DNA of 64,000 nt from Deltaproteobacteria bacterium RIFCSPLOWO2_12_FULL_60_19 (lineage in GTDB: Bacteria; Desulfobacterota; Binatia; UBA9968), in NCBI GenBank assembly GCA_001798595.1, contig MGSS01000014.1:20910-84909 (forward strand), in the 5' to 3' direction. The notes below the pieces were generated by a model. The model was not told the origin of the DNA, did not search any database, and worked only from the letters and a program-made list of their open reading frames with translations. Position numbers and translations under genes: made by a program. This document shows, one piece after another, positions 13,282-52,259 of this stretch; position 1 is the first letter of the stretch, and each line of letters starts with the position of its first letter.

Positions 13282-13282
13282 A

Positions 13283-19129: not shown

Positions 19130-19189
19130 AAAATGCAAAATGAAGACTAAAAATTTACGCTTTGCCTTTTGCAATCTGCAATTTGCATT
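19110..19189. repeat. AT-rich word-repeat palindrome, family 1, copy c
   Basis: caatgcaaaatgaaaagtgaaaaatgcaaaatgaag...cgctttgccttttgcaatctgcaatttgcattg. Confidence 0.85.
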
Positions 19190-19207
19190 GGTGGGGGGTT
19201 TGTAGCC

Positions 19208-19702: not shown

Positions 19703-19795
19703 AAAATGAAAGGTTCAAAGTGAAAAGTGAAGACGCCATGCATCCGAGGAGCTTGAGAATTTTGCAATTTGCACTTTGCAATTTTCATTTTGCAA
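19690..19795. repeat. AT-rich word-repeat palindrome, family 1, copy d
   Basis: caatgcaaaatgaaaaatgaaaggttcaaagtgaaaagtgaag ... gagaattttgcaatttgcactttgcaattttcattttgcaat. Confidence 0.85.
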
Positions 19796-20847: not shown

Positions 20848-20915
20848 GTCATTTGTTCAAGTTGTTCAAAAGGTTCAAGTGGTTCAAAAACACTGTGAAC
20901 TCGAACAGTGAAAGG
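20848..20915. repeat. Word-repeat element (GTTCAA words) with a short palindrome
   Basis: gtcatttgttcaagttgttcaaaaggttcaagtggttcaaaaacactgtgaactcgaacagtg. Confidence 0.6.
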
Positions 20916-20923
20916 ATCACGCC

Positions 20924-22006
20924 ATGCCGCGACTAAAAAGCTGTGTCCTGCTGACCTTAGCTCTGTCCTTTTTCTCCCAGGGACTGAGCTTCGCCCAGCA
21001 AGGCGTCGAGAATCTGTTGGAAAGCCTGAACAAGCTTGCTCCCGCGGAGCGGCAGCAGAGGCTTGTCGAAGGATCGAAAAAAGAAAAAGAGCTGATGGTC
21101 TACACGGTCTTGACCCTCACCGACTTCGACCATCTCCAGCGAGCGTTCAACGCCAGGTATCCCCACATCCAGGTGAAGCGCTTGCGCCAGGGCGGGGGCA
21201 AGCTGTTCGACTTCCTTATGAACGAGTACCGGGCGGGAAAAAATCTCGTCGATGTCCTGACCGCCGGCGAGACCATCACCTATCCGCTCATCAAAGAGGG
21301 ACTGATCGGCCGCTACGCTTCCCCGGAACGGCAAGCCTTCGCTCCGGAGTATAAAGACAAGGACGGTTACTGGACCGCATACTTCGCTTACCGCTGGGTC
21401 TTCGGCTACAACGTCGACCTGATTCCCGCCAACAGGATTCCCAAGAGCTACTTCGATCTCCTCGATCCCTACTGGAAAGGCAAGCTCGCCATCGACACCG
21501 ATCCTCATTCGTGGATGATCGGCATCATCAAGGCCTACGGCAAGGAAAAGGCCGTCGATTACTTCAGGAGGCTGGCCGGCCAGGGATTGCGCGCGCACAA
21601 AGGACGAACGCTCCGTGCGCAGCTCATGGCGGCGGGCGAGTTTCCGGCTTCCGTCGAGCAGGAGGTGAGCAAGATAGTTCAGATGAAGCGTCAGGGCGCG
21701 CCCTTGGACTACCGCTATCTTGAGAACACTCCCTCGACGTTGACGCCCGTGGCGCTTGCGCGGCTCGCTTCGCATCCCCACGCGGCGGCGCTCTACATCG
21801 ACTTCGTACTCTCCGAAGAAGGACAGAAGATACTGGCCGAGCTGGCTTATGTGCCCGCCCGCGGCGGTCTGCGCCCGAAGGATACGGAACTGGCCGAGCG
21901 CGACCGGCAAGCGAAGATCGTGGCGATGGACACGGAATCGACGTTTGCCTGGCGGAAAGAAGTCCTCGCCCTGGCGGATCAGATATTCACACCGGGGCGA
22001 AGGTGA
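20924..22006 (+). CDS. Exported ABC solute-binding protein, family-1 / Fe(III)-polyamine type (S2)
   Basis: 360 aa. The signal peptide is MPRLKSCVLLTLALSFFSQGLSFA. The LNKLAPAERQQRLVEGSKKEKE helix is shared with S1 and S3-S5. Confidence 0.85.
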   Translation: MPRLKSCVLLTLALSFFSQGLSFAQQGVENLLESLNKLAPAERQQRLVEGSKKEKELMVYTVLTLTDFDHLQRAFNARYPHIQVKRLRQGGGKLFDFLMNEYRAGKNLVDVLTAGETITYPLIKEGLIGRYASPERQAFAPEYKDKDGYWTAYFAYRWVFGYNVDLIPANRIPKSYFDLLDPYWKGKLAIDTDPHSWMIGIIKAYGKEKAVDYFRRLAGQGLRAHKGRTLRAQLMAAGEFPASVEQEVSKIVQMKRQGAPLDYRYLENTPSTLTPVALARLASHPHAAALYIDFVLSEEGQKILAELAYVPARGGLRPKDTELAERDRQAKIVAMDTESTFAWRKEVLALADQIFTPGRR

Positions 22007-22078
22007 GGAATAACGTGAGAGCGTAAGGCGTGAGGCGTTAGGCGATCCCCTCACCCCTCACGCCTGACCCCTTACGGC
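22003..22078. repeat. GC-rich word-repeat hairpin (GTGAGGCG words)
   Basis: gtgaggaataacgtgagagcgtaaggcgtgaggcgttaggcgatcccctcacccctcacgcctgaccccttacggc. Confidence 0.75.
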
Positions 22079-22092
22079 TTATAGGAGAAATA

Positions 22093-31072: not shown

Positions 31073-32527
31073 ATGCCGTTTGCCGATTTGAGAGAATGGA
31101 TTTCGGCTCTGGAAAAAGCCGGGGAGCTTCAGCGCGTCTCCACGGAGGTGGACTGGAGGCTGGAGGTGGGGGCGATCGTACGGCGCGTGTGCGAGACCAA
31201 CGGTCCGGCGGTCCTGTTCGAAAAGCTCAAGGACTATCCCAAAGGCTTCCGCATCCTCGGCGCGCCGATGGCGCGGAGCCGCAACCACCCCCATGCGCGT
31301 CTCGCGATCGCGCTCGGCTTTCCGCCGGACACCGGAGTCCGCGAGCTGACCGAGTCCTATCTCGCCAGGCGAAAAAACTCGATCCCGCCGCGCGTTATCG
31401 ATTTTCCCGGCCCATGCCAGGAAAACATTCTCACCGGCGACGCGGTCGATCTTTTGAAATTTCCCGTGCCGCTGATCCACGGCGGCGACGGCGGCCGCTA
31501 TATCGGCACCTGGCACACGATCATTACCAGGCATCCGGAAAAGCCGTGGGTCAACTACGGCATGTATCGCCTGATGGTGCACGACAAAAAACGGATGGGC
31601 GCCTTTCTCGGCCCGATCCAGGATATTCGCCGCCATCTGGCGGCCTATCAAAGGCTCGGCCGCCAGATGGAGTTTGCCGTGGCGATCGGCGCCGAGCCGG
31701 TGACGGCCGCGCTCTCCTGCGTATCGCTCCAGGGAGAGAGAAGCGAAGTGGACGTCATCGGCGGCCTGCGGCGAGAGCCGCTGGAGCTGGTGCGCTGCAA
31801 GACGGTTGACCTCGAAGTCCCGGCGACGGCGGAGATCGTGATCGAGGGATTCGTCAACCCCGACGAGTCGGAGGACGAGGGGCCGTTCGGCGAGTACACG
31901 GGCTATGTCGCGGGGGGCAGACAGCCGCGCCCCGTATTCAACGTCACCGCCGTCACTCACAGGAACGATCCGATCCTCACGATGACCTCGATCGGGATTC
32001 CCGTGGACGAAGATCACGTCGTCATGCCGATCGCCAACGCCGCCGAGGTTTTGGAGGAGCTGCGCGACCACAAAGGCTATCCCGTCAACTTTGTCCACAT
32101 TCTCCCGGAGTCGGCGAACCACTTCTGGGCCGTTTCGACGAAGGTGCCGGACAACACCTACGCGCGCCGGCTGGCGATGGCGATTTGGGGCACCAAGGCG
32201 GGGCGCTACGCCAACTATCTCCTGCTCGTCAACGAAGACGTGGACATCACGGATTTGAAAAGCGTCGTCTGGGCGATGGCGACGCGAGTCCATCCCGTGC
32301 GGGATGTCTGGCAGGTGCCTCACGGATACACGTCGGTCTTGATCCCGTTTCTCTCCGCAGAGGAGCGGAAGAGCGGCGACGGCGCTTACATGCTGCTGGA
32401 CGGTACCTGGCCGGCGGACTTGCCCGCGAGCGAGATCCCGAAGGTCTCCTCCTTCGCCCGCCTCTGGCCCGAGGAAATTCAAAGTCGGGTGCTGGCGAGG
32501 TGGAACGAGTATGGGTTTAAGGCCTGA
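31073..32527 (+). CDS. UbiD-family decarboxylase/carboxylase, paralog U2 (subfamily A)
   Basis: 484 aa with GGRYIGTWH, NYGMYR and DEGPFGEYTGY. It is colinear with U1 and U6. Confidence 0.9.
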   Translation: MPFADLREWISALEKAGELQRVSTEVDWRLEVGAIVRRVCETNGPAVLFEKLKDYPKGFRILGAPMARSRNHPHARLAIALGFPPDTGVRELTESYLARRKNSIPPRVIDFPGPCQENILTGDAVDLLKFPVPLIHGGDGGRYIGTWHTIITRHPEKPWVNYGMYRLMVHDKKRMGAFLGPIQDIRRHLAAYQRLGRQMEFAVAIGAEPVTAALSCVSLQGERSEVDVIGGLRREPLELVRCKTVDLEVPATAEIVIEGFVNPDESEDEGPFGEYTGYVAGGRQPRPVFNVTAVTHRNDPILTMTSIGIPVDEDHVVMPIANAAEVLEELRDHKGYPVNFVHILPESANHFWAVSTKVPDNTYARRLAMAIWGTKAGRYANYLLLVNEDVDITDLKSVVWAMATRVHPVRDVWQVPHGYTSVLIPFLSAEERKSGDGAYMLLDGTWPADLPASEIPKVSSFARLWPEEIQSRVLARWNEYGFKA

Positions 32528-32537
32528 GGGGATTACG

Positions 32538-34016
32538 ATGGGCCGTGAAGATCTCCGTGAATGGCTCTCCGCTTTAGAGGAAACGGGTGAACTGAAGCGT
32601 GTCAGGACCGAGGTTCACTGGGACCTGGAGCTGGCGGCCATCGTGAGGAAGGTGGGCAACGAGAACGGGCCGGGACTTTTGTTCGACAACATCACCGGCT
32701 GCCGGACCACGCACTGCCGGAAGCTCACCGCCAATAGTCTGGGCTCGCGGAAAAGAGTGGCTCTCGCCCTGGGGCTTTCGCCGGAAACCGGCTACTTCGA
32801 GATGACCCGGTTTTTGAAAAAGAAGTTCGGGGAGAAGATCGCTCCCGTGGCGCTTCGTACAGGCCCGGTCAAAAGAAACGTGATTCGCGACGATGTGGAC
32901 CTTTTCCAGTTTCCGGTTCCCAAATGGCATGCCGAAGACGGCGGCCGTTACATCCTTACGGCCGCCGGCATAGTCACTGCGGATCGTGAAACGAAGGTCA
33001 TGAATGTCGGCGTTTACCGCGGCATGCTGTCGAGTCAAAAAACGATACCGGTTTTGATGCCGGCGACCCAGCACGGGGGAAGACATTTCTCGCAGTATCA
33101 GGCGCGCGGAGAGGAGATGCCGGTTGCCGTGGTCATCGGCTGGGATCCGATATTTTTTATCACCGCGGCCACGCCGGTGCGCCATCCCGGATATTCGGAG
33201 TACGAGATCATGGGCGCATTGAGAGGCTCTCCCGTGGAGCTGGTCAAGTGCGAGACCTCCGACTTGATGGTTCCGGCCAACGCCGAGATCGTCATCGAGG
33301 GGAAAATCTCTCCCGACCCGGCGACTTTCGAGATGGAGGGACCGTTCGGCGAATATCCGGGTTATTTCGGCGGCGCCGCCTCCCGCAAGCCGGTCATTCG
33401 AGTGGAGTGTGTTACCTTCCGCGACGACCCCATCTTTATGGGAACTCTGGAAGGCCAGAGTCCCGGGAAGCTCGACGAGGGCTCCCACTTTACCTGCGCG
33501 GCCATGTCCGCAGTTGCCTGGAACCTGCTGGATGACATCGGCGTGCCGAACGTCACCGGAGCTTGGTGCAAGCCTGTGGTGGCGGGGACGAACCTACGGG
33601 TGCAGATCAAAAAAATCTACCGTGGACAGGCGAAGCAAGTCGCCAACGCGTTGTGGGGAGCAGGCTATTATCTCGCCAAAAACCTGATCGTCGTCGATGA
33701 CGACATCGACATCTATGACGACGATGCCGTGGAGTGGGCCATCGCGTGGAGGACCAATGCGGCCATGGGAGATTTCGCCTTTTTCCCCGGCACCTTCGGC
33801 TCTCTCTATGACCCCAGCGTGCCGCTGAAAGAGCGCGACGCCCTCAAATACGGCCAGGGAAAATGGACACGCATCCTCACGGACGCGACGATCAATTGGG
33901 ATCTGGAGCTGGAGGAGCAGTTCGGGGGGAAACGCTATCCTCCGCTATCCACGGCGATCGACCCCGATACGGAACAAAAAATTCTGGCGCGGTGGAAGGA
34001 GTACGAGATCGACTAA
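32538..34016 (+). CDS. UbiD-family decarboxylase/carboxylase, paralog U3 (subfamily B)
   Basis: MGREDLREWLSALEETGELKRV, NVGVYR, QHGG, MEGPFGEYPGY and KIYRGQAKQVANALWG. I chose the start at 32538 to avoid overlapping U2. Confidence 0.9.
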   Translation: MGREDLREWLSALEETGELKRVRTEVHWDLELAAIVRKVGNENGPGLLFDNITGCRTTHCRKLTANSLGSRKRVALALGLSPETGYFEMTRFLKKKFGEKIAPVALRTGPVKRNVIRDDVDLFQFPVPKWHAEDGGRYILTAAGIVTADRETKVMNVGVYRGMLSSQKTIPVLMPATQHGGRHFSQYQARGEEMPVAVVIGWDPIFFITAATPVRHPGYSEYEIMGALRGSPVELVKCETSDLMVPANAEIVIEGKISPDPATFEMEGPFGEYPGYFGGAASRKPVIRVECVTFRDDPIFMGTLEGQSPGKLDEGSHFTCAAMSAVAWNLLDDIGVPNVTGAWCKPVVAGTNLRVQIKKIYRGQAKQVANALWGAGYYLAKNLIVVDDDIDIYDDDAVEWAIAWRTNAAMGDFAFFPGTFGSLYDPSVPLKERDALKYGQGKWTRILTDATINWDLELEEQFGGKRYPPLSTAIDPDTEQKILARWKEYEID

Positions 34017-35193: not shown

Positions 35194-36672
35194 ATGGCCT
35201 TTCAAGATTTGCGCGCTTGGATCTCTCTCCTCGACGGGGAAGGAGAGATCCAACGAATCAAAGCCAAAGTCGATTGGAATTTGGAGCTGGGCGCCGTCTT
35301 CCGCAAGGTCCTTAACGCGCACGGTCCCGCGCTTCTGTTTGAAAACATCAAGGACCATGAGACCACATGGTGCCGAAAATTCTTTTGCAACGGGCTGGGC
35401 TCGCGCAAGAGGGTAAACCTCGCCTTGGGACTTGCTCCCGACACCGGCTACCGCGAGATCGTCCAATACATCAAAAGATGCCTTGCCAAGCCGATCCCGT
35501 CGGCAATCATCCCGACGGGGCCGGTGAAAGAAAATATCGTCCGCGGCAAGGAGGTGGACCTCTTCCAGTTTCCCGTCCCCAAGTGGCACCACCTCGACGG
35601 CGGCCGCTATATCAACACCGCCGCCAGCATCGTCACGCGCGATCCCGAGACGGCCCAGCTCAACGCTGGAACCTACCGTGGGATGATCGGCAAGAAAGAT
35701 ACTATCCCTTCCCTTATCGTCCCCGGCCAGCACGGCGGCATCCACCTGAGCAAGTACAAGGCTCGGGGAGAGCCTGCGCCGGTGGCCGTGGTGTATGGCT
35801 GGGACCCGGCGCTTTTCATGGTCGCCTCCACGCCGGTCAGACACAAGGGCTGCTCGGAGTATGAGATCGCCGGCAGCCTGCGCGGCAAGCCCGTGGAGCT
35901 GGTCAAGTGCGAAACTTCCGATCTTCTCGTCCCGGCGACGGCGGAAATCGTCGTCGAGGGAAAAATTTCTCCGAACCCGGAAGAGTACGAGATGGAGGGG
36001 CCCTTCGGCGAATACACGGGATACTACGGCGGCATGAAATCGCCCAAGCCGACCATCAAAGTCGAGTGCATCACCTTCAGAAACGACCCGATCTTTCGCG
36101 GCACGCTGGAGGGAACGAGTCCAGGGCGGTGGGCGGAAGATGTTTACTTTGTCTGCGCCTCTTTTTCGGCGGTCTGCTGGCAGTTGCTTGACGATATCGG
36201 CGTCCCCAATGTGACGGGGGTTTGGATCCCGCCGGTCACCAACTCCACGAACATGCGCGTGCAGATCAAGAAGATTTACCGCGGCCATGCCAAGCAGGTG
36301 GCCAACGCGCTGTGGGGAACGAACTTCTACTTTGCCAAGAACGTCATTGTCGTGGACGAAGACATCGACATCTACGACGACGAGGCCGTCGAGTGGGCGC
36401 TCGCCTATCGGACCAACGCGGCGATGGGCGACTTCGCGTTTTTCCCCGGCACCATCGGCGCCAATCTCGATCCTTCGCTCCCGCTTGCGGACCGGGACGT
36501 TTACAAGTACGGCGCGGCCAAGTGGACGCGCGTCCTGATGGACGCCACGATCAATTGGGAGTTGGAGCCCGAGCCGCAGTTCGGCGGCAAGCGCTACCCG
36601 CCGCTCTCCACTGATGTGGACCCCGAAGTCGCCGGTCTCGTTGAGAAGAGGTGGAAGGAATATGGCTTTTAG
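35194..36672 (+). CDS. UbiD-family decarboxylase/carboxylase, paralog U4 (subfamily B)
   Basis: 492 aa with NAGTYR, QHGG, MEGPFGEYTGY and KIYRGHAKQVANALWG. It is colinear with U3. Confidence 0.9.
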   Translation: MAFQDLRAWISLLDGEGEIQRIKAKVDWNLELGAVFRKVLNAHGPALLFENIKDHETTWCRKFFCNGLGSRKRVNLALGLAPDTGYREIVQYIKRCLAKPIPSAIIPTGPVKENIVRGKEVDLFQFPVPKWHHLDGGRYINTAASIVTRDPETAQLNAGTYRGMIGKKDTIPSLIVPGQHGGIHLSKYKARGEPAPVAVVYGWDPALFMVASTPVRHKGCSEYEIAGSLRGKPVELVKCETSDLLVPATAEIVVEGKISPNPEEYEMEGPFGEYTGYYGGMKSPKPTIKVECITFRNDPIFRGTLEGTSPGRWAEDVYFVCASFSAVCWQLLDDIGVPNVTGVWIPPVTNSTNMRVQIKKIYRGHAKQVANALWGTNFYFAKNVIVVDEDIDIYDDEAVEWALAYRTNAAMGDFAFFPGTIGANLDPSLPLADRDVYKYGAAKWTRVLMDATINWELEPEPQFGGKRYPPLSTDVDPEVAGLVEKRWKEYGF

Positions 36673-36694
36673 AGAAGAGGTCAGTAGAATTCAG

Positions 36695-37669
36695 ATGAAG
36701 ACGGGCATACCTTTTATCCTACTTTCCCTCCTCATCCTTTTTCAGCAGGCTCAGGCTGAGTCTCTCCGCGTGGCTTACGTTTCCATCGGCGGAGCTCATA
36801 CGCCCCTTTGGGTGGCGCGCGAGGCGGGCATTTTCGATAAGCACGGGCTTGACGTGAATCCTGTGCTCATCGGGAGCGACTCCGGGGCCACCCCGGCCTT
36901 GATCGCTGGAGACATCGACGTCCTCCTGGCCGGCGCCGCCGCCCCCTTAAGGGCGGTTGTTTCTGGAGCGGATATCGTCTTTATCGGCGGCCAGCTTCCT
37001 TATCTCGTCTTTAAACTGATGGTCGATAGCTCTATCCAGAAACCGGGCGACCTCAAAGGTAAGCAGCTCGGCATCCAGCGATTTGGCGACACGGCCCATT
37101 ATGGGTTGTTGCGGGCTTTGGAGAGACTGGGTCTGGATCCTGCCAGGGACGTGAAAATCGTTATGAGCGGCAACCAGACCGGTCGCTTGGCCGCCATGAA
37201 GCAGGGCATTATCCACGGCACCATGGTCAACCCTCCTACCAAGTTGGTCTACGAAAAAGAGGGATTCAAAGAGCTTCTGGACCTTGCCCAACTCAAGATC
37301 CCTTTTGCCGGAAATGTCTACTCCGTGCGTCGCCCTTTGATCGAGCGGAGCCGTGAGGTCCTCGAAAGGTTCATGACGGCCATCGTTGAAGGCATTCACC
37401 GGTACAAAACCGACAAAGAGTTTGCCCTTAAGGTAATCCGGAAATACATTCGCACTCAGGATCCTGCGGTCCTGGAGGTAGCCTATAGCGGCTATGTGCA
37501 GGTTATGCCTGCTTTGCCTTATCCTTCGGAGGAGAGTTTCAAGGCGGCCCTGGAAGTCTTCGCACAGGAGGTTCCCAAGGCAAAAGAGCTCGATCTGAAG
37601 CGCGTGCTGGATCGGTCCTTTGTGCAAAAGATCGAGACCGGCGGGTTGATGCAGAGACTTTATCGATAG
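36695..37669 (+). CDS. Exported NMT1/THI5-like (nitrate/sulfonate/bicarbonate-type) solute-binding protein (N1)
   Basis: The signal peptide is MKTGIPFILLSLLILFQQAQA. LRVAYVSIGGAHTPLWVAREAGIFDKHGLD is the start typical of SsuA/NMT1-like SBPs. Confidence 0.8.
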   Translation: MKTGIPFILLSLLILFQQAQAESLRVAYVSIGGAHTPLWVAREAGIFDKHGLDVNPVLIGSDSGATPALIAGDIDVLLAGAAAPLRAVVSGADIVFIGGQLPYLVFKLMVDSSIQKPGDLKGKQLGIQRFGDTAHYGLLRALERLGLDPARDVKIVMSGNQTGRLAAMKQGIIHGTMVNPPTKLVYEKEGFKELLDLAQLKIPFAGNVYSVRRPLIERSREVLERFMTAIVEGIHRYKTDKEFALKVIRKYIRTQDPAVLEVAYSGYVQVMPALPYPSEESFKAALEVFAQEVPKAKELDLKRVLDRSFVQKIETGGLMQRLYR

Positions 37670-37678: not shown

Positions 37679-39271
37679 ATGGCCTATTACCGCGATCTAA
37701 GAGAGTTCATCTCGGCGCTGGAGCAGGCCGGAAAGCTCGTGCGAATCCCCCGGCCGGTGGTCAAAGAGAGCGAGCTGTTCCCGCTGTTTCGACTTCAGTT
37801 CCGCGGTCTCTCCGAGGAGGAGCGCAAGGTTTTTCTCTTCGAGCGCGTCGTCGATGTCAAAGGGAAAACTTACAGCGGCAGCGTGGCTGCCGGGATTTAC
37901 GGCGCGTCCCGTGAAGTCTGCGCTCTCGGCGTGATGTGCCGGGAGGGAGAGATACTGGAACGGTGGCATGAGGCTTTGGCCTGCCCGCTCGCTCCCGAAA
38001 CGGTCTCCTCGGGGGTCGTTCAGGAAGAGATCCACGAGGGAGAGGAGCTTTCCGTCCTCGGGCTGGACGAGTTTCCCGCGCCCGTGGAAGAGCCGGGCTA
38101 CAGCGGCTCGCTTCGCGCCACCACTCAGTTCGTTACGCGGGACCCGGAAACCGGAGTCCGCAACGTGGGGCTGTACTCCGGCCATTTTCGCTCGTCCCAT
38201 CGCCTCCTCTTGGGCATCGCCCCAACGCATCACGCCTACCTTCACTGGCTCAAATACGAGAAAAGGAAAGAGCCGATGCCCGCCGCCATCGTCATCGGCG
38301 CCACGCCCAACATCGTCCAGGTCTCGGCCGCCAACATCCCTTACGGCGTCGATGAGTTTTCGGTCGCCGGGGGACTTGCGCGCGAGCCCGTAAGGCTCGT
38401 CAAGTGCAGAACCGTGGACCTCGAGGTTCCCGCCGATGCGGAGATTTGCATCGAAGGCCTGATCTCCACCGATCGTTTTGAGCCGCACAGCTCCTTCGGC
38501 GAATATCCCGGCTACATGTATCAGGGAAGCGGCGACGTGCGGCCGGTGATGGAGGTTACCTGCATCACCCATCGGCGGAGTCCCATCTTCACTCCGTTCC
38601 TCGTCGGCCTCCCGCCAAGCGACACCCACAAGCTCATGCAGATCGCCGCCGAGGCGCTCTATTACAGCTTTCTCAAGTACGGCTCGAATAATCCGTATAT
38701 CGTTGACGTCGCCTTTCCCGAGGCGGGCGGGAGCTGGAACTATTGCGTGGTGTCGATCCGCAAGAGCCATCCCACGCAGCCCTGGCAGGTTTTGAATGCG
38801 ATTGCGGGTTTCGACCCGGTCATAGGGAAGATCGCTATCGTGGTGGACGAGGACGTGAACCCGCATGACGCGGATGCCGTCAACTGGGCGCTGAGCTTTT
38901 CGATGCAGCCGCACTCGGACGCGCGCATTATCACCGACCGCGCGCCGGCCCTCGATCCTTCGGCTTATGCTCCGGGATCCCCCCACGAAGAGCGGAGCTT
39001 TCCTTCTCCGCACGGCTCGTCGGCGATTTTGATCGATGCAACCCGCAAATGGCCCTATCCTCCGGTGGGGTTGCCGCAGAAGGAATACATGGAAAACGCG
39101 CTCCGCTTGTGGAAAGAGCTTGGATTCCCGCCGCTCAAACTGAAGGAGCCGTGGCACGGCTATTCCTTGGGCAATTGGACGAAGGAAGACGAAGAGAATG
39201 CGGCGCTGATTCTCAGGGGCGATTATCACAAGATCGGCGAGAAGATGCGACGGAGACAGACAAAGGGCTGA
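37679..39271 (+). CDS. UbiD-family protein, paralog U5 (divergent subfamily C)
   Basis: 530 aa. It has the UbiD N-terminus MAYYRDLREFISALEQAGKLVRI, but the catalytic-motif positions differ: NVGLYS instead of N.G.YR, and HSSFGEYPGY. Confidence 0.85.
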   Translation: MAYYRDLREFISALEQAGKLVRIPRPVVKESELFPLFRLQFRGLSEEERKVFLFERVVDVKGKTYSGSVAAGIYGASREVCALGVMCREGEILERWHEALACPLAPETVSSGVVQEEIHEGEELSVLGLDEFPAPVEEPGYSGSLRATTQFVTRDPETGVRNVGLYSGHFRSSHRLLLGIAPTHHAYLHWLKYEKRKEPMPAAIVIGATPNIVQVSAANIPYGVDEFSVAGGLAREPVRLVKCRTVDLEVPADAEICIEGLISTDRFEPHSSFGEYPGYMYQGSGDVRPVMEVTCITHRRSPIFTPFLVGLPPSDTHKLMQIAAEALYYSFLKYGSNNPYIVDVAFPEAGGSWNYCVVSIRKSHPTQPWQVLNAIAGFDPVIGKIAIVVDEDVNPHDADAVNWALSFSMQPHSDARIITDRAPALDPSAYAPGSPHEERSFPSPHGSSAILIDATRKWPYPPVGLPQKEYMENALRLWKELGFPPLKLKEPWHGYSLGNWTKEDEENAALILRGDYHKIGEKMRRRQTKG

Positions 39272-39305
39272 GCGCCGCACTAGGATTGCGCCCTCAGGAG
39301 AAAAA

Positions 39306-40760
39306 ATGGCCTATCCAGATTTGCGCGCTTGGATAGCAGAGCTTGAGAGGCACGGCGAGCTGGCGCGCGTGCGCCGCGAGGTGGATTGGAATCTCGAGAT
39401 TGGGGCGATCACGCGCAGGATCTGTGAGACCCAGGGGCCGGCGCCGCTGTTTGAGACGGTCAAAGGTTATCCAGGCTGCCGTATCCTCGGCGCTCCTGTT
39501 GCCATGAGTAAAAAACACCGCTATGGCCGCTTGGCGTTGAGCCTGGGGCTTCCCGTGGATTCCTCCTTCAGGGAGATTTTTGAATTTTACCTCGCAAGAA
39601 GGAAAAACCGCATTGCTCCGATAGAGGTCTCCGCGGGTAGCTGCCAGGAAAACGTTATCCTGGGCGCCGACGACGTCGACCTTTTCAAACTCCCCGCTCC
39701 TTATATTCATGACGGGGATGGTGGGCGCTATCTGGGGACGTGGCATGTGGTCATCTCTCGAAACCTGCGGGGCGACTGGACCAACTACGGCATGTATCGG
39801 CTCATGATCCATGATCGTCGCCATCTGGGAATCAATCTGGGCCTCCTTCAGCACCTCTACTTGCAATACCAAGAATACGCGGAGCAGAACCGCCCCATGG
39901 AGTTCGCCGCGGCCATCGGCGTCGAGCCTGTAACGGCATTGATCGGGGCGACTTCCGTCGGAGAAGGGGTGAACGAAGCAGAAGTTATCGGCGGCGTGCG
40001 GGGCGAGCCTTTGGAAGTGGTGCGCTGTAAGACCGTTGACCTGTGCGTGCCGGCGACGGCGGAAATCGTGATCGAGGGAACTATCGATCCCAGAGAGCGT
40101 AAGGACGAGGGGCCTTTCGGCGAGTACGTGGGCTATCGCGCCGGCGGCAAGAATCCCCGGCCCGTCCTGAAGGTCCAGGCTATTACCCATCGGAACAACC
40201 CCATCCTTCCGATGTGCGCGCTCGGCACGCCGATCGACGACGTTCACACTCTTCACTCTGTCCTTGAAGCGGCAGAGGTTTTTGAGGAGCTTCGTGACTC
40301 CAAAGGTTTCCCGGTCGAGTGCGTCTATCCCGTGCCGGAGGCCGCCGGCCACCTTTGGGCGGTCTCTACCGATGTCCCCGACAAGACTTATCCCCGCCGT
40401 CTGGCGATGGCGCTCTGGGCGATGAAGGGAGGGCGCTACGCGGATTATCTTGTGCTGGTCAATAAAGACGTGGATGTGACCGATCTAAGAGAGCTTCTAT
40501 GGGCGATGGCCACGCGGGCCCACCCGGTGCGCGATCTCTGGCCGGTGGAGCATCTCTACAGCACGCTGCTTGTCCCTTGGCTCACGCCCGAGGAGCGAAA
40601 GACGGGAGACGGGGCCCACGTTCTCATCGATGCCACCTGGCCGGCGGACTGGCCGAAAGATTGGATCCCGGAGGTTTCCTCTTTCAAGACGATGTGGCCC
40701 GAAGAAGTTCAGCGGAAGGTGCTTCAAAACTGGCGGGAAGATGGCCTTGGAAACCCTTGA
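39306..40760 (+). CDS. UbiD-family decarboxylase/carboxylase, paralog U6 (subfamily A)
   Basis: 484 aa with GGRYLGTWH, NYGMYR, QHLY and DEGPFGEYVGY. Confidence 0.9.
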   Translation: MAYPDLRAWIAELERHGELARVRREVDWNLEIGAITRRICETQGPAPLFETVKGYPGCRILGAPVAMSKKHRYGRLALSLGLPVDSSFREIFEFYLARRKNRIAPIEVSAGSCQENVILGADDVDLFKLPAPYIHDGDGGRYLGTWHVVISRNLRGDWTNYGMYRLMIHDRRHLGINLGLLQHLYLQYQEYAEQNRPMEFAAAIGVEPVTALIGATSVGEGVNEAEVIGGVRGEPLEVVRCKTVDLCVPATAEIVIEGTIDPRERKDEGPFGEYVGYRAGGKNPRPVLKVQAITHRNNPILPMCALGTPIDDVHTLHSVLEAAEVFEELRDSKGFPVECVYPVPEAAGHLWAVSTDVPDKTYPRRLAMALWAMKGGRYADYLVLVNKDVDVTDLRELLWAMATRAHPVRDLWPVEHLYSTLLVPWLTPEERKTGDGAHVLIDATWPADWPKDWIPEVSSFKTMWPEEVQRKVLQNWREDGLGNP

Positions 40761-40762
40761 GA

Positions 40763-40894
40763 CAATGCAAAATGAAAATTGCAAAATGCAAAAGTCGAAA
40801 TAACAGACAGAGATCGGAGACAACCCCCGGGCGGCTGTTTTTATCGCGGTCTTCCTCGATTTTTCATTTTTCAATTTGCATTTTGCATTTTGCA
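40763..40894. repeat. AT-rich word-repeat palindrome, family 1, copy e (large GC-rich loop)
   Basis: caatgcaaaatgaaaattgcaaaatgcaaaagtcgaaa ... ttttcatttttcaatttgcattttgcattttgca. It starts 2 nt after the U6 stop and ends at the GTG start of the next gene. Confidence 0.85.
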
Positions 40895-41869
40895 GTGAGA
40901 GCTGTTTTGCCGCTTTTGTTGATCTTGCTCTGTTTTTCCTCTGCTCTCGCTCAGGAGAAGAAGCTCAGAAAGATGACGGTGGGTTATGTCCTCGCATCCT
41001 CCGCCTATGCGTCGCTCTTCGTCGCCAAGGAGGCGCGGATTCTTGAGAAGCATGGGCTCGATGCGAGCCTCATCTTCCTCGGCACGGGTTCGCTCGCCGT
41101 GTCCGCGCTGCTCGCCGGAGATGTGAATGTGCTGCGCGGCACTCCCGCTGCCGTGGTGCAGGCCCAAGCCCAAGGCGCCCCTCTCGTCATCCTGGGCTCG
41201 GAGTATGATGTCCTGACTTTCAAGCTCATCGTTCGGCCTGAGATTCGTGAAGCGAAGGATCTCAAGGGGAGGAAACTGGGCATCGCCCGTTTCGGCGACA
41301 CCGGGGACTACGCGACGAGGCGCGCGCTTCAATATCTGGGACTTGATCCTCAGCGGGATGTGACGATTCTTCAGGCGGGCGGGCAGACCGCTCGCCTTGC
41401 CGCGCTTCAGGCCAAAGCGCTTGACGGCACGGTGGTCAATCCTCCCAACGATCTGATTATGAAAGAGGTTGGTTTTCACGAGTTGGTGGACATCAGCAGG
41501 CTGGCGCTGCCCTATCTGGGCAACACCTACGCGGTCACGCAGGCCACGCTTAAGTCCCAACCTGATGCGGTGGAGGGTTTTGCCCGTGCGATGGTGGAGG
41601 GGATTGCTCATTTCAAGACTCATAAGGAAGAGACGCTTAAGGTTTTGCGGAAGTATCTGCGGGTTACCGACCAGAAAATGCTCGAAGCGACGTACGAATT
41701 TATTAAACAGTTTACGGTGGACGTTCCGATCCCTAGAGCCGACGGACTCGCTGTGATGCTGGATATCATGGCGCGGGAGACGGGAACAAAGCCAAAAGTA
41801 GACCCTGCCTCGTTTATCGACGCCACGTTGGTAAAAAAAATCATCAGCAAGAGGGAAATCGCGCCATGA
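40895..41869 (+). CDS. Exported NMT1/THI5-like solute-binding protein (N2)
   Basis: The GTG start gives VRAVLPLLLILLCFSSALA as the signal peptide. The protein is colinear with N1 (GRKLGIARFGDTGDYATRRALQYLGLDPQRDV). Confidence 0.8.
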   Translation: MRAVLPLLLILLCFSSALAQEKKLRKMTVGYVLASSAYASLFVAKEARILEKHGLDASLIFLGTGSLAVSALLAGDVNVLRGTPAAVVQAQAQGAPLVILGSEYDVLTFKLIVRPEIREAKDLKGRKLGIARFGDTGDYATRRALQYLGLDPQRDVTILQAGGQTARLAALQAKALDGTVVNPPNDLIMKEVGFHELVDISRLALPYLGNTYAVTQATLKSQPDAVEGFARAMVEGIAHFKTHKEETLKVLRKYLRVTDQKMLEATYEFIKQFTVDVPIPRADGLAVMLDIMARETGTKPKVDPASFIDATLVKKIISKREIAP

Positions 41870-42846
41870 TAATCGATGTTTTCTGTCACATCTATCCGAA
41901 GAATTTTCTGGCGGCGTTGGCGCAAATGAAAAGCTCCCTGCCTCACGTCCGCTTCTCCGCCGAGATCAAGGAAGGCTGGGAAGATTTTGTCGACCTGGAC
42001 CTCCGGCTCCGTCACATGGATCAGTACGGCGTGGATGTTCAGGTGTTGAGCCTGGCGACGCCGGCGTTCGAAGCGGAAAACCCGCAGGAGCAGATCCAGC
42101 TCGCCAAAATCGCCAATGACGGCATCGCCGAAATCGTCGCCAAAAACCCCAAACGCTTCATCGGCGCCGCCACGCTGCCGATGCTCACGATCGATACGGC
42201 GCTGGCGGAGCTGGATCGATCGGTCCGAGACTTGGGATTGAGAGGCGTCCAGCTGTTTTCCAACATCGGCGGAAAGCCGCTGGACACGCCGGAGCTGGTT
42301 CCGTTCTATGAGAAAGTCGCGCGCTACGATGTGCCGATCATCCTCCATCCGACTTCCTGGAACTATTACGAATGGAGCAGGGAGTACGGGATGTGGAACA
42401 TTTTCGGCTGGCCGTTCGACACGAGCCTGGCGATGGGAAGGATCGTGTTCGGCGGTATTTTAGAAAAATTTCCGACTCTCAAGATCGTCACCCACCACCT
42501 CGGCGCGATGGCGCCGTACTTCGTCGAGAGGATTCGCGGCTTCTACGACCAGGGCGAGCAGTATCCCAACTTATCGACCCGCGCGAAATTCACCAGGGCG
42601 CCGCTCGATTATTTCAGACTCTTCTACGCCGACACGGCGGTCTACGGCTGGAAGCCGGCTTTGGATTGCGGCCTGGCTTTTTTCGGCGCGGATCACGTTC
42701 TCTTTGCCACGGATTATCCGTTCGGGCCTGACGCGGGAGAGAGGTACGTGCGCAACACGATTCAGTCGATCAACGAGCTGGAGCTTTCCCGGGAGGACAA
42801 AGAGAAGATCTTCTCCGGCAACGCCAGGCGTCTGTTCCGGATTTAA
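41866..42846 (+). CDS. Amidohydrolase-2 family protein (ACMSD / LigW / gamma-resorcylate decarboxylase-type non-oxidative decarboxylase fold)
   Basis: 326 aa with MIIDVFCHIYP at the start, VQLFSNIGG, ILHPTS and FATDYPFG at the end. The start overlaps the N2 stop (ATGA). Confidence 0.75.
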   Translation: MIIDVFCHIYPKNFLAALAQMKSSLPHVRFSAEIKEGWEDFVDLDLRLRHMDQYGVDVQVLSLATPAFEAENPQEQIQLAKIANDGIAEIVAKNPKRFIGAATLPMLTIDTALAELDRSVRDLGLRGVQLFSNIGGKPLDTPELVPFYEKVARYDVPIILHPTSWNYYEWSREYGMWNIFGWPFDTSLAMGRIVFGGILEKFPTLKIVTHHLGAMAPYFVERIRGFYDQGEQYPNLSTRAKFTRAPLDYFRLFYADTAVYGWKPALDCGLAFFGADHVLFATDYPFGPDAGERYVRNTIQSINELELSREDKEKIFSGNARRLFRI

Positions 42847-42870
42847 TATTGGAGTTTACCCTTTGACGAT

Positions 42871-42969
42871 GAAAGCCGCCACCCGCTCTCCGAGCCCGCG
42901 CAATGGGTAGCTGCTTAATCCCACCGGGGGTATCGGATGCGCGGGCTCTCCGACCGGGCGGCGGCTTTC
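42871..42969. repeat. 99-nt structured palindromic element, family 3, copy b
   Basis: gaaagccgccacccgctctccgagcccgcgcaatgggtagctgcttaatcccaccgggggtatcggatgcgcgggctctccgaccgggcggcggctttc. Confidence 0.8.
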
Positions 42970-43036
42970 ACTTCGAAGACTCACGCCCCGAGGAATCGCT
43001 TGCGGGAAAGATCGCTGAAGAAAGAAAGGAAAAGCT

Positions 43037-44689
43037 ATGAGCTACCACAAAGACCTGCGCGACTATCTGGATCATCTGGACCGCGCGGGCAAGCTGCGGC
43101 GCGTCGGCCGGCGGATCGACAAGGATACGGAGCTTCATCCTCTGGTGCGCTGGCAGTTTCGCGGACTGGACGAAGACGAGAGAACCGGTTTCCTGTTCGA
43201 CAATCTTACTGGCCTCAAAGGGCTCAACTACCCCTCGCGGGTCGCCACCGCCATCATGGCGCCATCGCGCGAGGTTTACGCGATGGGGATGATGTGCTCT
43301 CCCGCGGAGATCTCCCAAAAGTGGAGCGCGGCCTATGCGCGCCCCATCGAGCCGAGATTGGTGACGACGGGGCCGGTCAAAGAAGAGATTCACCTGGGCA
43401 AGAATCTGCTGGAGCACGGCGGGCTGGATGAGTTTGCGATCCCGATGGCGACCAACGGCTGGGAGTGTCTCCCGCGGTTGACGGCGGTCTCGTGGCATTC
43501 CAAAGACCCGGACACCGGCGTCGTCAACGTCGGGACTTACAACGGGCTTCAGCTCGGTCCGGACCGGACCAATCTCCGCTGTGGTCCCGGAACGCATCTG
43601 GTGGTCCACTGGCAGAAATGCAGGAAGCGCGGCGTTCCGCTCCAGGCCGCGGCGGTGATCGGCGCGGTGCCCGCGATCTCGATGGTCAGCGTGGCCAAAG
43701 TTCCCTACAGCGTAAGCGAGCTGGCCGTGGCGGGAGGCATCGCCGGAGAGCCGATCGACGTCGTGCGCTGCGAGACGATCGATCTTGTCGTCCCGGCGAC
43801 CGCTGAGATCGTGATCGAGGGCGAGGTGCCCACGGATTACATGGAGCCGGACGGCGCGAGCGGCGAGCACACCGGCTACACCATCGTCGGCCGGCGGGTC
43901 TTCGCTTTCAAAGTGAAGGCGATCACGCACCGAAAAAATCCCATCTGGCACGACTTCATCAGCCAGATGCCGCCGTCGGAGTCGAGCACGATTCGCGGTC
44001 TCGCGGGCGAGGGGAGGATGACGAGTTTCTTGCGCGACGGCTGCGGGATCAATCAGGTGAAAGACGTGGCGTTTCATCACTGTGCTGGCGCCTGGAGAAT
44101 CTGCGTGATTCGTTTTCAGGACATCGCCGGCGTGAGAACGCACGAGAGCGTCGTTTGGCAGGCGCTTTTGGCCTCTCAATCGATCGCCACCGATTGGCCC
44201 AAGATGGTGATCGCGGTGGACGACGATATCGACCCGACCGATCTGGAGTCGGTCTTCTGGGCCGTCACGTTCCGCTATCAGCCGCACCGGGACACGAGGA
44301 TCATTCAAGGCCGGGGCGCGAGCCTGGATCAGTCGTCGGGCTCCTATAGCGCGTCGTACGAAGAGAGGCGTTTCCCGACCGGCACGACGTCGCCTCAAGG
44401 CGCTTCGTCGATCCTGATGGATGCGACGAGGAAGTGGGACTACACGCCGGTCTCTCTGCCGAAGAAAGAATACATGGAGAATGCGAAGCGGATCTGGGAG
44501 GAGTTGGGATTTCCCCGGCTCAAGCCGAAAGCGCCCTGGTACGGCTACGACCTCGGTATCTGGGCAGAGGAAGACGAGAGACTGGCGCGGCTGGCCGAGA
44601 AAGGGGAGTTCGATAAAGTGGCGGAGGCTTTGATGAGCAAGGGCAGGAAATTGACGCCAACAGACAAAGTCTCGGGAGGAATGGAGTAA
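43037..44689 (+). CDS. UbiD-family protein, paralog U7 (divergent subfamily C)
   Basis: 550 aa with MSYHKDLRDYLDHLDRAGKLRRV. It is colinear with U5. The motif positions read NVGTYN and DGASGEHTGY. Confidence 0.85.
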   Translation: MSYHKDLRDYLDHLDRAGKLRRVGRRIDKDTELHPLVRWQFRGLDEDERTGFLFDNLTGLKGLNYPSRVATAIMAPSREVYAMGMMCSPAEISQKWSAAYARPIEPRLVTTGPVKEEIHLGKNLLEHGGLDEFAIPMATNGWECLPRLTAVSWHSKDPDTGVVNVGTYNGLQLGPDRTNLRCGPGTHLVVHWQKCRKRGVPLQAAAVIGAVPAISMVSVAKVPYSVSELAVAGGIAGEPIDVVRCETIDLVVPATAEIVIEGEVPTDYMEPDGASGEHTGYTIVGRRVFAFKVKAITHRKNPIWHDFISQMPPSESSTIRGLAGEGRMTSFLRDGCGINQVKDVAFHHCAGAWRICVIRFQDIAGVRTHESVVWQALLASQSIATDWPKMVIAVDDDIDPTDLESVFWAVTFRYQPHRDTRIIQGRGASLDQSSGSYSASYEERRFPTGTTSPQGASSILMDATRKWDYTPVSLPKKEYMENAKRIWEELGFPRLKPKAPWYGYDLGIWAEEDERLARLAEKGEFDKVAEALMSKGRKLTPTDKVSGGME

Positions 44690-44692: not shown

Positions 44693-45679
44693 ATGAGCCG
44701 CTATTCCGCAATACTCGCGCGCGGAGTTTTTCTGGCCGCGCTCCTCGCGCTGCCCGGGATAGGGAAAAGCGCAGACGAGCGGCTCGAACATGTGGTTATC
44801 GGCGTGCCGGCCAAGGTCGTCCAGTTCGCGCCGTTTTACCTGGGCGCAAAGAAAGGGATCTACGCCGCCGAGGGACTGAAGGTCGAGGTCGTCCAAATCC
44901 GCACCGCCGCAACCCTCGCCGCGCTGCTTTCGGGCGACATGGACTACTCGGGCGCAATCGGCTCCGCCGTCCGCTCAATCGGCGCCGGCGCGCCTTTAAA
45001 GGTCGTTCTATCGATTCGCGACAAGTCGAATTTTTATCTCATTGCGCGCCCCGAGATTCGCAGCTTCGCCGATCTCAAGGGAAAAAAGATCGGCGTGCAG
45101 CAGATCGGGAGCGGGCAGTCGATCAGCACGCGCATGCTGGTCGCAAAGAAAGGGCTCAATCCCGACCGGGACGTGATTTTTGTCTCGGGCAATCCGACGC
45201 CGATCGCCTTCCAGGGAGTGAAGACGGGGGTGATCGATGCGGGAACGGTCTCCTCGCCGTATCAATTTCTCGCGCGCCGCAGTGGGCTGAACGTTTTGTC
45301 TTTTTTGGGAGACGACGTGCCCGAGGCGCCGTCGGGCACCGGGATTGCGACGACGGAGAAAACAATCCGGAGCCGGCCGGATCAGGTGCGGAAGATGATC
45401 CGGGCGACGCTCAAGGCGCTGCGCTATTTCAAGGAGAATCCCGCGGAGGTCCAGTCCATTCTAGTGCAGGAATTCGGCGTTCAGGCCGATCTGGTGAAAG
45501 ACCTTTACGACGAGGCCATCGAGATGTTCGTTTTTCAAGGCAGTCTCGACCCGGCGAAAATCCAGGCCCAGATCAACATGGCCAAAGAGGGCGGGCAAAA
45601 ACTGCCGCCCGACTTCAGCCCGGAGAAGTGCATCGACGCGAGTTTTCTGAGAGAGATTCATAAAGAGATGGGGCTATAG
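44693..45679 (+). CDS. Exported NMT1/THI5-like solute-binding protein (N3)
   Basis: 328 aa. The signal peptide is MSRYSAILARGVFLAALLALPGIGKSA. GKKIGVQQIGSGQSISTRMLVAKKGLNPDRDV parallels N1 and N2. Confidence 0.8.
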   Translation: MSRYSAILARGVFLAALLALPGIGKSADERLEHVVIGVPAKVVQFAPFYLGAKKGIYAAEGLKVEVVQIRTAATLAALLSGDMDYSGAIGSAVRSIGAGAPLKVVLSIRDKSNFYLIARPEIRSFADLKGKKIGVQQIGSGQSISTRMLVAKKGLNPDRDVIFVSGNPTPIAFQGVKTGVIDAGTVSSPYQFLARRSGLNVLSFLGDDVPEAPSGTGIATTEKTIRSRPDQVRKMIRATLKALRYFKENPAEVQSILVQEFGVQADLVKDLYDEAIEMFVFQGSLDPAKIQAQINMAKEGGQKLPPDFSPEKCIDASFLREIHKEMGL

Positions 45680-51575: not shown

Positions 51576-52259
51576 ATGGGGTCGGTCTCTATGGAGAATC
51601 AGGCGTTTGTCGATTCGGTCGTTCGTGAGATTGTTCAGCCCGGCGTGCAATCGCTCATGAATACCCGTTACTTCTCCGAGCTGAGGGAAGGCAAGCTGTC
51701 AAAGCGCAGGCTTCAGGGCTTCGCCATCCAGCACTACCTCCACAACGTCGCGCTCTGCAAAGGCCTGGTTCTCTGCATGGCGAAGAACGTCGCCAATCCC
51801 GATCTCTACGAGCATTTTCGCGAGCAGTTCAACGAAGAGCAGTACCATCCCGACCTGGCCAAGAACTTCGGCCTGGCCCTCGGCCTGAGTGAATCGGACT
51901 TTGAAAATGCGACGCCGGTCTTCGAGTGCCTCGCGCACACGAGCGCGGTGATCCGCGGCATGTTTCTGGGCTCTCCGGCGGAGACGCGCACCGGCGCGCT
52001 GGTCAACGAGAGCATGGTGTGCCGCTACTCGGAAGAGTTCGACGCCTCTCTCAGGAAACACTACGGGCTGGGCGACAAAGAGTGCCAGTTTTTCACCGTC
52101 CACAAGGCCGCCGACGTGGAGCACACCAAGGCGGCAGGCGAAGTCGTCGCACGCTACGCGACATCGCCCGAGCAGCAGCGGGCTGTGCGCGTGGCGGCGC
52201 ACAACATGGTGCGGTTTAAGATCGCCAAGTTCGAAGGGATTTACCAGGCCTACAGTTAG
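51576..52259 (+). CDS. TenA/PqqC-like heme-oxygenase-fold (iron-containing redox enzyme family) protein
   Basis: 227 aa, all-helical. The FAIQHYLH, NEEQYH and VHKAADVEH pattern is typical of the TenA_C/PqqC-like fold. Confidence 0.55.
   Translation: MGSVSMENQAFVDSVVREIVQPGVQSLMNTRYFSELREGKLSKRRLQGFAIQHYLHNVALCKGLVLCMAKNVANPDLYEHFREQFNEEQYHPDLAKNFGLALGLSESDFENATPVFECLAHTSAVIRGMFLGSPAETRTGALVNESMVCRYSEEFDASLRKHYGLGDKECQFFTVHKAADVEHTKAAGEVVARYATSPEQQRAVRVAAHNMVRFKIAKFEGIYQAYS

Follow-up and report, generated by a model that had tools for sequence, protein, structure and literature searches.

The 64,000-nucleotide stretch of the genome of Deltaproteobacteria bacterium RIFCSPLOWO2_12_FULL_60_19 analysed here (contig MGSS01000014.1; the window) carries seven intact open reading frames (ORFs) of the UbiD family, U1 to U7, all on the + strand and each with the Pfam UbiD and UbiD_C domains. 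Two of them, U5 and U7, lack the arginine of the N-x-G-x-Y-R active-site motif and have an arginine further upstream, at position 146 in U5 and 147 in U7. In UbiD enzymes, which depend on prenylated flavin mononucleotide (prFMN), the motif Arg is implicated in substrate/CO2 binding and in the oxidative maturation of prFMN; the Glu-Arg-Glu network to which it belongs is treated as an invariant catalytic signature of the family, from which a common mechanism is argued. The explanation that we favour, with a probability of about 0.55, is that U5 and U7 are active prFMN-dependent (de)carboxylases whose catalytic Arg now sits on the neighbouring β-strand, with the ionic network rebuilt around its new position. 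The evidence that carries it is a strict alternation: in the 357 sequences compared, Arg is found at one or the other of the two positions, never at both and never at neither.

Active-site motifs of U5 and U7

The two genes and the codons discussed below are the following; S-type and N-type designate the two Arg-less sub-lineages to which U5 and U7 belong.

37679..39271, + strand: U5, long-form UbiD paralog of 530 amino acids (aa), S-type (Ser replaces the canonical Arg); Pfam UbiD, UbiD_C and UbiD_N
38087..38089, + strand: U5 Glu137 codon, S-type-specific acidic residue, possible new partner of Arg146
38114..38116, + strand: U5 Arg146 codon, candidate relocated catalytic Arg, in place of the Tyr of DGGxY
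38162..38179, + strand: U5 N162-V-G-L-Y-S167, Asn metal ligand kept, Ser at the canonical Arg position (HMMER alignment to HmfF)
38486..38503, + strand: U5 H270-S-S-F-G-E275, His for the first Glu of E-X4-E, second Glu kept
39128..39268, + strand: U5 C-terminal extension (residues 484-530) with PWHGYSLGNW, a mark of the long form, absent from U1-U4 and U6
43037..44689, + strand: U7, long-form UbiD paralog of 550 aa, N-type (Asn replaces the canonical Arg); Pfam UbiD and UbiD_C
43475..43477, + strand: U7 Arg147 codon, candidate relocated catalytic Arg, invariant in the N-type
43526..43543, + strand: U7 N164-V-G-T-Y-N169, Asn ligand kept, Asn at the canonical Arg position (HMMER alignment to HmfF)
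43850..43867, + strand: U7 D272-G-A-S-G-E277, D-X4-E with Ser for the usual Phe
44513..44686, + strand: U7 C-terminal extension with PWYGYDLGIW

A sequence-only reading of the window, made without database searches, had described NxGxYR and (E)GPFGE motifs in U1-U4 and U6, and NVGLYS/HSSFGE and NVGTYN/DGASGE in U5 and U7. All were found as described: the five canonical paralogs read N(W/Y/V/A)G(M/V/T)YR and EGPFGE, with the small correction that U2 has Asp, not His, 23 residues after the Asn. U5 and U7 do have this His (H185 and H187), together with the Asn (N162 and N164) and the second Glu (E275 and E277), as that reading had it, and the universal Glu is kept as well (E226 and E228). The three Mn2+/phosphate ligand positions are thus conserved in both proteins (N162, H185 and E226 in U5; N164, H187 and E228 in U7); we take them to be the equivalents of N168, H191 and E233 of Fdc1. 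Across the two sub-lineages the Asn and the Glu are invariant, and the His is present in 95% of the members of one and 71% of those of the other. The view that U5 and U7 form a subfamily of their own was also borne out; they are 44% identical to each other and only 28-32% identical to the other five paralogs, and have in common a C-terminal extension of about 45-58 aa.

At the canonical positions, the R-Xn-E-X4-(E/D) network, an arrangement called highly conserved and essential in the UbiD literature, is not found: its three places are held by S167, H270 and E275 in U5 and by N169, D272 and E277 in U7. In pairwise HMMER alignments with HmfF (6h6x/6h6v; E-values of 1.6e-51 for U5 and 2.4e-44 for U7), S167 and N169 stand opposite the Arg of the HmfF motif NVSIHR, which indicates that the canonical Arg is truly absent from its column, and H270 and D272 stand opposite the first Glu of EGPFGE. 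An alignment artefact was considered and rejected: Ser or Asn occupied the Arg column in the HMMER alignments to HmfF, in MAFFT alignments of 127, 242, 358 and 161 sequences and with L-INS-i.

The two substitutions in U7 do not have the same weight. In Fdc1, the R173A variant retains trace activity and R173K none, and Glu-to-Asp is the only tolerated change (PMC5818171); E(D)-R-E variation is, moreover, known in the UbiD family (PMC8988006). Because Fdc1 tolerates Glu-to-Asp and not the Arg changes, Asp272 of U7, which had been counted as a departure in the sequence-only reading, falls within ordinary variation, but the missing Arg does not.

An arginine at position 146 or at position 167

Arg-keeping long-form proteins (R-type), S-type, N-type and short canonical proteins were compared column by column. 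For the 357 sequences, the residue pairs at positions 146 and 167 (U5 numbering) were R,N in 117, R,S in 111, R,G in eight and R,Q in two; the remaining 119 had Arg at 167 and Y, F, T, V or M at 146. Every protein devoid of Arg167 (238/238, i.e. all S-, N-, G- and Q-type proteins) therefore carries Arg at the position of U5 146 and U7 147. There was not a single R,R pair, nor a single pair lacking Arg at both positions.

The new Arg occupies the column of the Tyr of the DGGxY motif. U7 Arg147 aligns without a gap to the Tyr of P-Y in its closest Arg-keeping relatives (P0222, P0072 and L093). One MAFFT run placed R146 one column past the Tyr; the upstream P-G-[FYW] anchor and the gap-free comparison of N- and R-type proteins settle the assignment in favour of the Tyr column.

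The alternation was seen again in a wider sample. With a threshold of E<=1e-30, a profile search of 1.84 billion representatives clustered at 50% identity gave 1969 UbiD clusters. In the 150 best of these cluster representatives, a residue other than Arg at 167 (S, N, T or G) always went with Arg146, save in two short-form proteins. Because 167 can be S, G, Q, T or N with 146 remaining Arg throughout, the constrained residue of the two is 146. The two short-form proteins, P0305 and P0389, are UbiDs of about 477 aa that read NVGTYA/DGPHVD and are devoid of Arg at both 167 and 146; they have an Arg at 143, three residues before the Tyr (L-N-R-A-P-Y), and may represent another relocation.

Other residues changed along with the Arg. 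The residue at 137 is Glu in 97% of S-type proteins and Ser in 100% of the Arg-keeping long forms; the Asp of the DGG motif is replaced by Ser in the S-type and by Glu in the N-type. Lineage-specific conserved polar residues of the S-type are H169, H184 and E137, and the conserved residues particular to the N-type are E143, R181, S275, H278 and W304-H305-D306.

On this point the earlier claim that U5 and U7 lack the catalytic Arg stands for the linear motif and probably does not stand for the protein, given an Arg at 146/147 that is invariant wherever Arg167 is missing. The same reading had proposed an alignment in search of another basic residue filling the place of R173, and had named a conserved residue supplied from a neighbouring position as a result that would speak against it; a conserved Arg on what is predicted to be the neighbouring strand comes close to that, its contact with the pocket being a projection from the model.

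A long-form clade with two Arg-less sub-lineages

A search of a collection of 5.8 billion proteins gave more than 100 full-length homologs for each of U5 and U7, at 50-98% identity (for U5, more than 100 at 50-78%). They come from Desulfobacterales, Chloroflexota/Dehalococcoidia, Acidobacteriota, Binatia, Gammaproteobacteria and an archaeal metagenome-assembled genome (MAG). The canonical Arg position is occupied by S (103), G (7), Q (2) or R (5) in the 117 U5-like homologs, and by N (114) or R (4) in the 118 U7-like ones. At the first-Glu position the U5-like set is variable (G, E, H, Y and others) and the U7-like set has D in 111 members. The last acid is always E or D in the former and always E in the latter, where Ser, moreover, stands in for the Phe of EGPFGE; in the resulting D-x-x-S-G-E motif of the N-type, D is conserved at 94%, S at 89-92% and E at 100%. 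The substitutions in U5 and U7 are thus conserved states, rather than chance changes or lesions.

The relatives were scanned with one genome per species (at least 589 relatives), and the UbiD genes of 80 loci were classified. U5 and U7 have the two features of what we call the long form, an informal grouping defined in the present analysis: a length of about 525-560 aa and a C-terminal extension with PW(H/Y)GYxLGxW. In the classified loci most members of this clade keep NxGxYR and E(G/A)PFGE. The S-type (U5-like, mostly with Ser) and the N-type (U7-like, with Asn plus D-x-x-S-G-E) are two Arg-less sub-lineages inside it. Long forms also occur in cultured Sinorhizobium, Neorhizobium, Paraburkholderia and Amycolatopsis. 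Both proteins match the Pfam families PF01977 (E-values of 2e-49 for U5 and 1.4e-43 for U7) and PF20696 (4.9e-23 and 3.3e-17). They fall below the 244.85-bit cut-off of the NCBIfam model TIGR00148, with 242.3 bits for U5 and 203.3 for U7, the five canonical paralogs scoring 304-364. Taken together, the homologs suggest that U5 and U7 are intact members, under purifying selection, of a large and uncharacterised long-form UbiD clade. No description of that clade or of Arg-less UbiDs was found in the full-text literature searched, whose coverage leaves out most subscription journals, so that a prior description is possible.

Number of Arg switches

A neighbour-joining tree was built from 479 columns, the three motif segments being left out, with 100 bootstraps. 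The long forms came out as one clade (103/105 tips). The N-type was monophyletic (100% bootstrap) and grouped with the Arg-keeping proteins P0222 and P0229 (99%), to which it is sister, rather than to the S-type; a clade uniting the S- and N-types exclusively was recovered in 0% of the bootstraps. From this topology, the Arg would have switched twice, or once with a later reversal, and either history would involve 146 and 167 changing together at least twice. Direct functional coupling between the two positions is therefore favoured.

Predicted structures

AlphaFold2 models were of high confidence for both proteins (predicted local distance difference test score, 93.2 for U5 and 92.6 for U7; predicted TM-score, 0.90 and 0.89). 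The Foldseek search made with the U5 model returned HmfF (6h6v) as best match, with a target TM-score of 0.88 and about 30% identity; the target TM-scores against HmfF, E. coli UbiD, HudA, AroY, VdcC and Fdc1 were 0.81-0.93, and the probability was 1.00, with E-values from 1e-41 to 1e-35, for HmfF, UbiD, HudA, Fdc1 and AroY. U5 and U7 are thus predicted to have the three-domain UbiD fold, from the AlphaFold2 models and, for U5, from Foldseek.

The secondary structure assigned by DSSP shows, in the U5 model, a two-residue strand (145-146) followed by a hairpin (149-154/161-172) and, in the U7 model, a bridge (147-148), lying beside strand 169-174, followed by the hairpin 152-156/163-174. In both models the new Arg is predicted to lie on a strand segment antiparallel to the strand that carries position 167 or 169. 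By homology, the end of the sheet where it lies would face the isoalloxazine ring of the cofactor.

Comparison with known UbiD enzymes

The best match to U5 and U7 in the PDB, by sequence and by structure, is HmfF, the 2,5-furandicarboxylate decarboxylase of Pelotomaculum thermopropionicum (6H6V/6H6X). It has in common with them the three-domain fold, the Asn/His/Glu ligand positions and the last Glu, but differs in keeping the Arg of NVSIHR and EGPFGE, in having Tyr at the 146/147 position, and in being about 100 aa shorter, without the PW(H/Y)GYxLGxW extension. Likewise, Fdc1 of A. niger and S. cerevisiae resembles them in fold (Foldseek E-value of about 1e-35), in its cofactor-ligand positions and in the equivalent of Glu282; it depends, however, on Glu277-Arg173-Glu282, whose Arg and first-Glu positions are Ser and His in U5, and Asn and Asp in U7.

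The closest comparison is with the Arg-keeping long forms, such as WP_227705719.1 of Neorhizobium petrolearium, those of Sinorhizobium fredii megaplasmids and those of many Alpha- and Betaproteobacteria and Binatia. They have the length and the PW(H/Y)GYxLGxW extension of U5 and U7, to which they are up to 50-55% identical, but they carry NxGxYR and E(G/A)PFGE, have Tyr at 146 and are often found beside UbiX. To our knowledge, none of these proteins has been characterised. The gene for WP_227705719.1 (locus L093; plasmid NZ_CP123001.1, 653397-670956) has a xanthine-dehydrogenase-family Mo enzyme on either side and UbiX at a distance of 3 kb. This layout is similar to that of the lumazine-degradation cluster of Cupriavidus LA-1, which has xanthine-dehydrogenase-family genes and UbiX and encodes a UbiD-type xanthine-carboxylate decarboxylase, XCDC, reported to be 'not closely related' to the UbiDs already known (PMC12391406). 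By its cluster layout, XCDC is a candidate that might prove to be the first characterised long-form member.

Phenylphosphate carboxylase (Ppc) offers a precedent for two UbiD-like genes in one operon, PpcA/PpcB, as for U5-U6. Unlike U5 and U7, both of its subunits keep the Arg and E-X4-E. U5 and U7 scored 83-117 bits with the Ppc models, the cut-offs of which are 469-565, and no ppcD/ppcG or small Ppc subunit genes were found flanking U5-U6.

Gene context, the partner question and UbiX

The span 37679-44689 comprises U5, U6, a binding-protein gene of the NMT1 type, an Amidohydro_2 gene and U7. The other genes of the family and the immediate neighbours of U5 and U7 are as follows.

16766-18247, + strand: U1, UbiD paralog; Pfam UbiD and UbiD_C
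31073-32527, + strand: U2, UbiD paralog; Pfam UbiD and UbiD_C
32511-34016, + strand: U3, UbiD paralog; Pfam UbiD and UbiD_C
35194-36672, + strand: U4, UbiD paralog; Pfam UbiD and UbiD_C
36614..37669, + strand: NMT1/SsuA-type solute-binding protein, 9 nt upstream of U5
39306..40760, + strand: U6, canonical short UbiD paralog (Pfam) with NYGMYR/EGPFGE, 34 nt downstream of U5
40895..41869, + strand: NMT1/SsuA-type periplasmic solute-binding protein (Pfam NMT1), with in-frame starts and a signal-peptide-like sequence; its start is uncertain, the listed ORF start at 40499 being over-extended
41866..42846, + strand: Amidohydro_2 metal-dependent decarboxylase of the ACMSD/LigW/gamma-resorcylate decarboxylase type (Pfam PF04909), upstream of U7
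44693..45679, + strand: NMT1/SsuA-type solute-binding protein, 3 nt downstream of U7

The statement that U5 directly precedes the canonical U6 was confirmed, and the U5-like/U6-like pair is kept at the locus of a 78%-identical ortholog (L006). The proposal drawn from it, that U5 could be a non-catalytic partner of U6, did not fare as well. Gene context was surveyed at 15 distinct loci, which hold 17 Arg-less genes. A canonical UbiD gene directly adjoins only three of these genes, the third case being that of L005; 14 have no adjacent canonical UbiD, U7 among them, and some loci (L004, L007, L015 and L087) have none within 8-10 kb. In an L-INS-i alignment, both phenylphosphate carboxylase subunits, alpha and beta as annotated, were found to keep the Arg and E-X4-E. 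An obligate role as partner subunit is thus unlikely for the Arg-less UbiDs, being supported neither by the contexts of the 17 genes nor by the Ppc alpha/beta motifs.

UbiX genes were sought with the E. coli UbiX sequence as query, which gave clear matches (E-values from 1e-60 to 1e-76) beside Arg-keeping relatives. Arg-keeping long forms are directly beside UbiX in at least nine loci, and within 3 kb of it in Neorhizobium; since they adjoin UbiX, the long-form clade as a whole appears to be linked to prFMN. The five canonical paralogs of the window also need UbiX, which must therefore be encoded elsewhere in the genome.

The neighbours point to catabolism. N-type genes are accompanied by LigB-type extradiol dioxygenases, Rieske/LigXa_C oxygenases, GFO_IDH_MocA dehydrogenases, bicupins, alpha/beta-hydrolases and ATP-binding cassette (ABC) uptake systems; S-type genes by Rieske/LigXa_C, cupin, LigB, RraA-like, major facilitator superfamily and solute-binding protein genes. 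In the window, U7 is preceded by the ACMSD/LigW-type Amidohydro_2 decarboxylase, whose sequence matches in the PDB are ACMSD (E-value of 4.7e-38), 5-carboxyvanillate decarboxylase (5.8e-34) and gamma-resorcylate decarboxylase (2.5e-33). This environment suggests that U5 and U7 serve catabolism by decarboxylating substituted aromatic acids, which may derive from lignin and may carry two carboxyl groups.

Proposed relocation of the arginine and alternative explanations

According to the explanation that we favour, U5 and U7 would still bind prFMN with Mn2+/K+, as their ligands and relatives suggest, and would presumably catalyse the reversible (de)carboxylation of aromatic acids on their own. 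The catalytic Arg would have moved from position 167 of U5 and 169 of U7 (R173 of Fdc1) to the adjacent antiparallel strand, as R146 and R147, taking the place of the DGGxY Tyr, and its guanidinium could reach the same pocket above the cofactor from the new strand. The covarying Arg may in this way restore the R-Xn-E-X4-(E/D) network in space. In the U7 type this network would be remodelled into Asp-X4-Glu, with the Phe of the loop changed to Ser; in the U5 type only the last acid (E or D) would be kept from it, with the new conserved Glu137 beside the new Arg. A bolder version, held only tentatively, is that the Arg hopped to the neighbouring β-strand at least twice independently, that the Glu partner moved too in the Ser-type, and that two widespread but so far unrecognised prFMN active-site architectures resulted, possibly tuned to non-canonical substrates such as the dicarboxylated aromatics derived from lignin biphenyls (5-carboxyvanillate-like acids).

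Several observations weigh against the relocation. That the guanidinium of R146 or R147 could reach the R173 pocket is deduced from the secondary structure of the models, in which 146/147 and 167/169 are 1-3 residues out of hairpin register; the inactivity of Fdc1 R173K shows the site to be geometrically demanding (PMC5818171). Neither the window nor the surroundings of the 15 S/N-type loci yielded a UbiX homolog, so that the case for prFMN use in the Arg-less types is built on the conserved ligands and on the relatives. In the tree the S-type is poorly placed (26-28% bootstrap), and a second independent switch depends mainly on the grouping of the N-type with P0222, the alternative being a reversal. 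Finally, we know of no member of the long-form clade that has been characterised.

The main alternative, which we consider unlikely though worth keeping in view, is that U5 and U7 bind the cofactor but carry out a different chemistry or act on a different class of substrates, Arg146/147 being a residue newly used to bind the substrate (for instance through a second carboxylate or a different anionic group) and acid-base catalysis relying on the retained Glu/Asp plus His169 in the S-type, or His278, His305 and Asp306 in the N-type. It agrees with the many lineage-specific conserved polar residues that arise together with the Arg switch, with the variability of the first Glu in the S-type, with the dicarboxylate substrate of HmfF, the closest solved structure, and with the LigXa_C, LigB and hydrolase neighbours of the N-type, reminiscent of a pathway for biphenyl or dicarboxy-aromatic compounds of the 5,5'-dehydrodivanillate type. 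It accounts poorly, however, for the strict choice between Arg146 and Arg167, which is what a positional swap of a single function predicts; if a function had been added at 146, some double-Arg proteins would be expected and none was seen. The sequence-only reading, which had a retained cofactor in an altered active site, is partly borne out: the ligands are kept and the network does differ, but the catalytic Arg has probably been relocated.

It seems quite improbable that a canonical UbiD such as U6 has U5, and possibly U7, as a partner subunit that is not catalytic or has a regulatory role. The short U5-U6 interval, the retention of the pair in L006 and the third adjacency in L005 would fit, and heteromeric UbiD enzymes do exist (phenylphosphate carboxylase and VdcCD). 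Yet most Arg-less genes have no canonical gene next to them, occasional adjacency is to be expected in islands rich in UbiD paralogs, both phenylphosphate carboxylase subunits retain their Arg and Glu residues, and the invariance here of the new Arg, of the acid-base Glu and of the metal ligands would not be required in a scaffold. It is harder still to believe that U5 and U7 are decaying paralogs or pseudo-enzymes devoid of catalysis: the loss of the canonical Arg, whose Fdc1 variants are nearly dead, and TIGR00148 scores just under the cut-off would agree with decay, but the ORFs are full-length, the folds are predicted with high confidence, and hundreds of homologs at 50-98% identity across phyla have invariant residues in the active-site region.

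Relocation of the Arg would be a clean case of catalytic-residue migration within one fold, and a clade that discards this residue while always gaining one on the next strand would provide a natural test of which geometry of the network is essential. It would also caution that the linear motif alone is no basis for calling UbiD homologs inactive. The hundreds of environmental enzymes concerned (from Desulfobacterota, Chloroflexota, Binatia, Acidobacteriota and archaeal MAGs) would be candidates for new (de)carboxylation substrates, of potential relevance to lignin valorisation and CO2 fixation.

Other features of the window

The UbiD genes of the window are interspersed with genes for periplasmic solute-binding proteins of the SBP_bac_6 and NMT1 types and for ABC permeases. 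Between 16766 and 45679, at least nine solute-binding-protein genes of these two types, against two permease genes, lie among the decarboxylase genes, and no ATPase gene was seen in that stretch as examined. The pattern of one binding protein per enzyme is also found in the homologous loci L001, L002 and L005. The island also contains Rieske proteins, a hydantoinase A/B pair and a xanthine-dehydrogenase-family Mo enzyme; U1 is flanked by this pair, of the oxoprolinase/acetone-carboxylase type, and by the latter enzyme, with its FAD and Mo subunits (10855-15049 and 18251-24537). In L001 and L092, long-form UbiDs are likewise accompanied by hydantoinase A/B genes.

U2 and U3 overlap by 17 nt (31073-34016), which suggests translational coupling. 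U2 scored best with the phenylphosphate carboxylase alpha model, U3 and U4 with TIGR00148 and the VdcC models and, among the Ppc models, better with beta than with alpha; all three were far below the specific Ppc and VdcC cut-offs. The U2-U3 pair is thus a better candidate than U5-U6 for a heteromeric UbiD.

A TENA/Haem_oxygenase_2 protein is encoded repeatedly near S-type UbiD genes: at 51576-52259 in the window, at 13102-13857 in L006, where it comes after the U6-like gene, and at 7133-7873 in L007, where it is directly upstream of the S-type gene. Its best PDB sequence matches are 4-aminobenzoate synthases of the CADD/CT610 type (E-value of 2.9e-13).

Lastly, an AT-rich intergenic palindromic element, made of inverted arrays of the 7-nt units TTGCAWT and TTTTCAT, is present in five copies (at about 2416-2523, 4202-4271, 19113-19187, 19693-19794 and 40766-40894), with 27 pattern matches against 0.03 expected in a window of 60% GC. 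One copy separates the U6 stop codon from the next solute-binding-protein gene and is what inflates the ORF of that gene back to 40499. The element could be akin to repetitive extragenic palindromic sequences, a regulatory site or a mobile miniature element.

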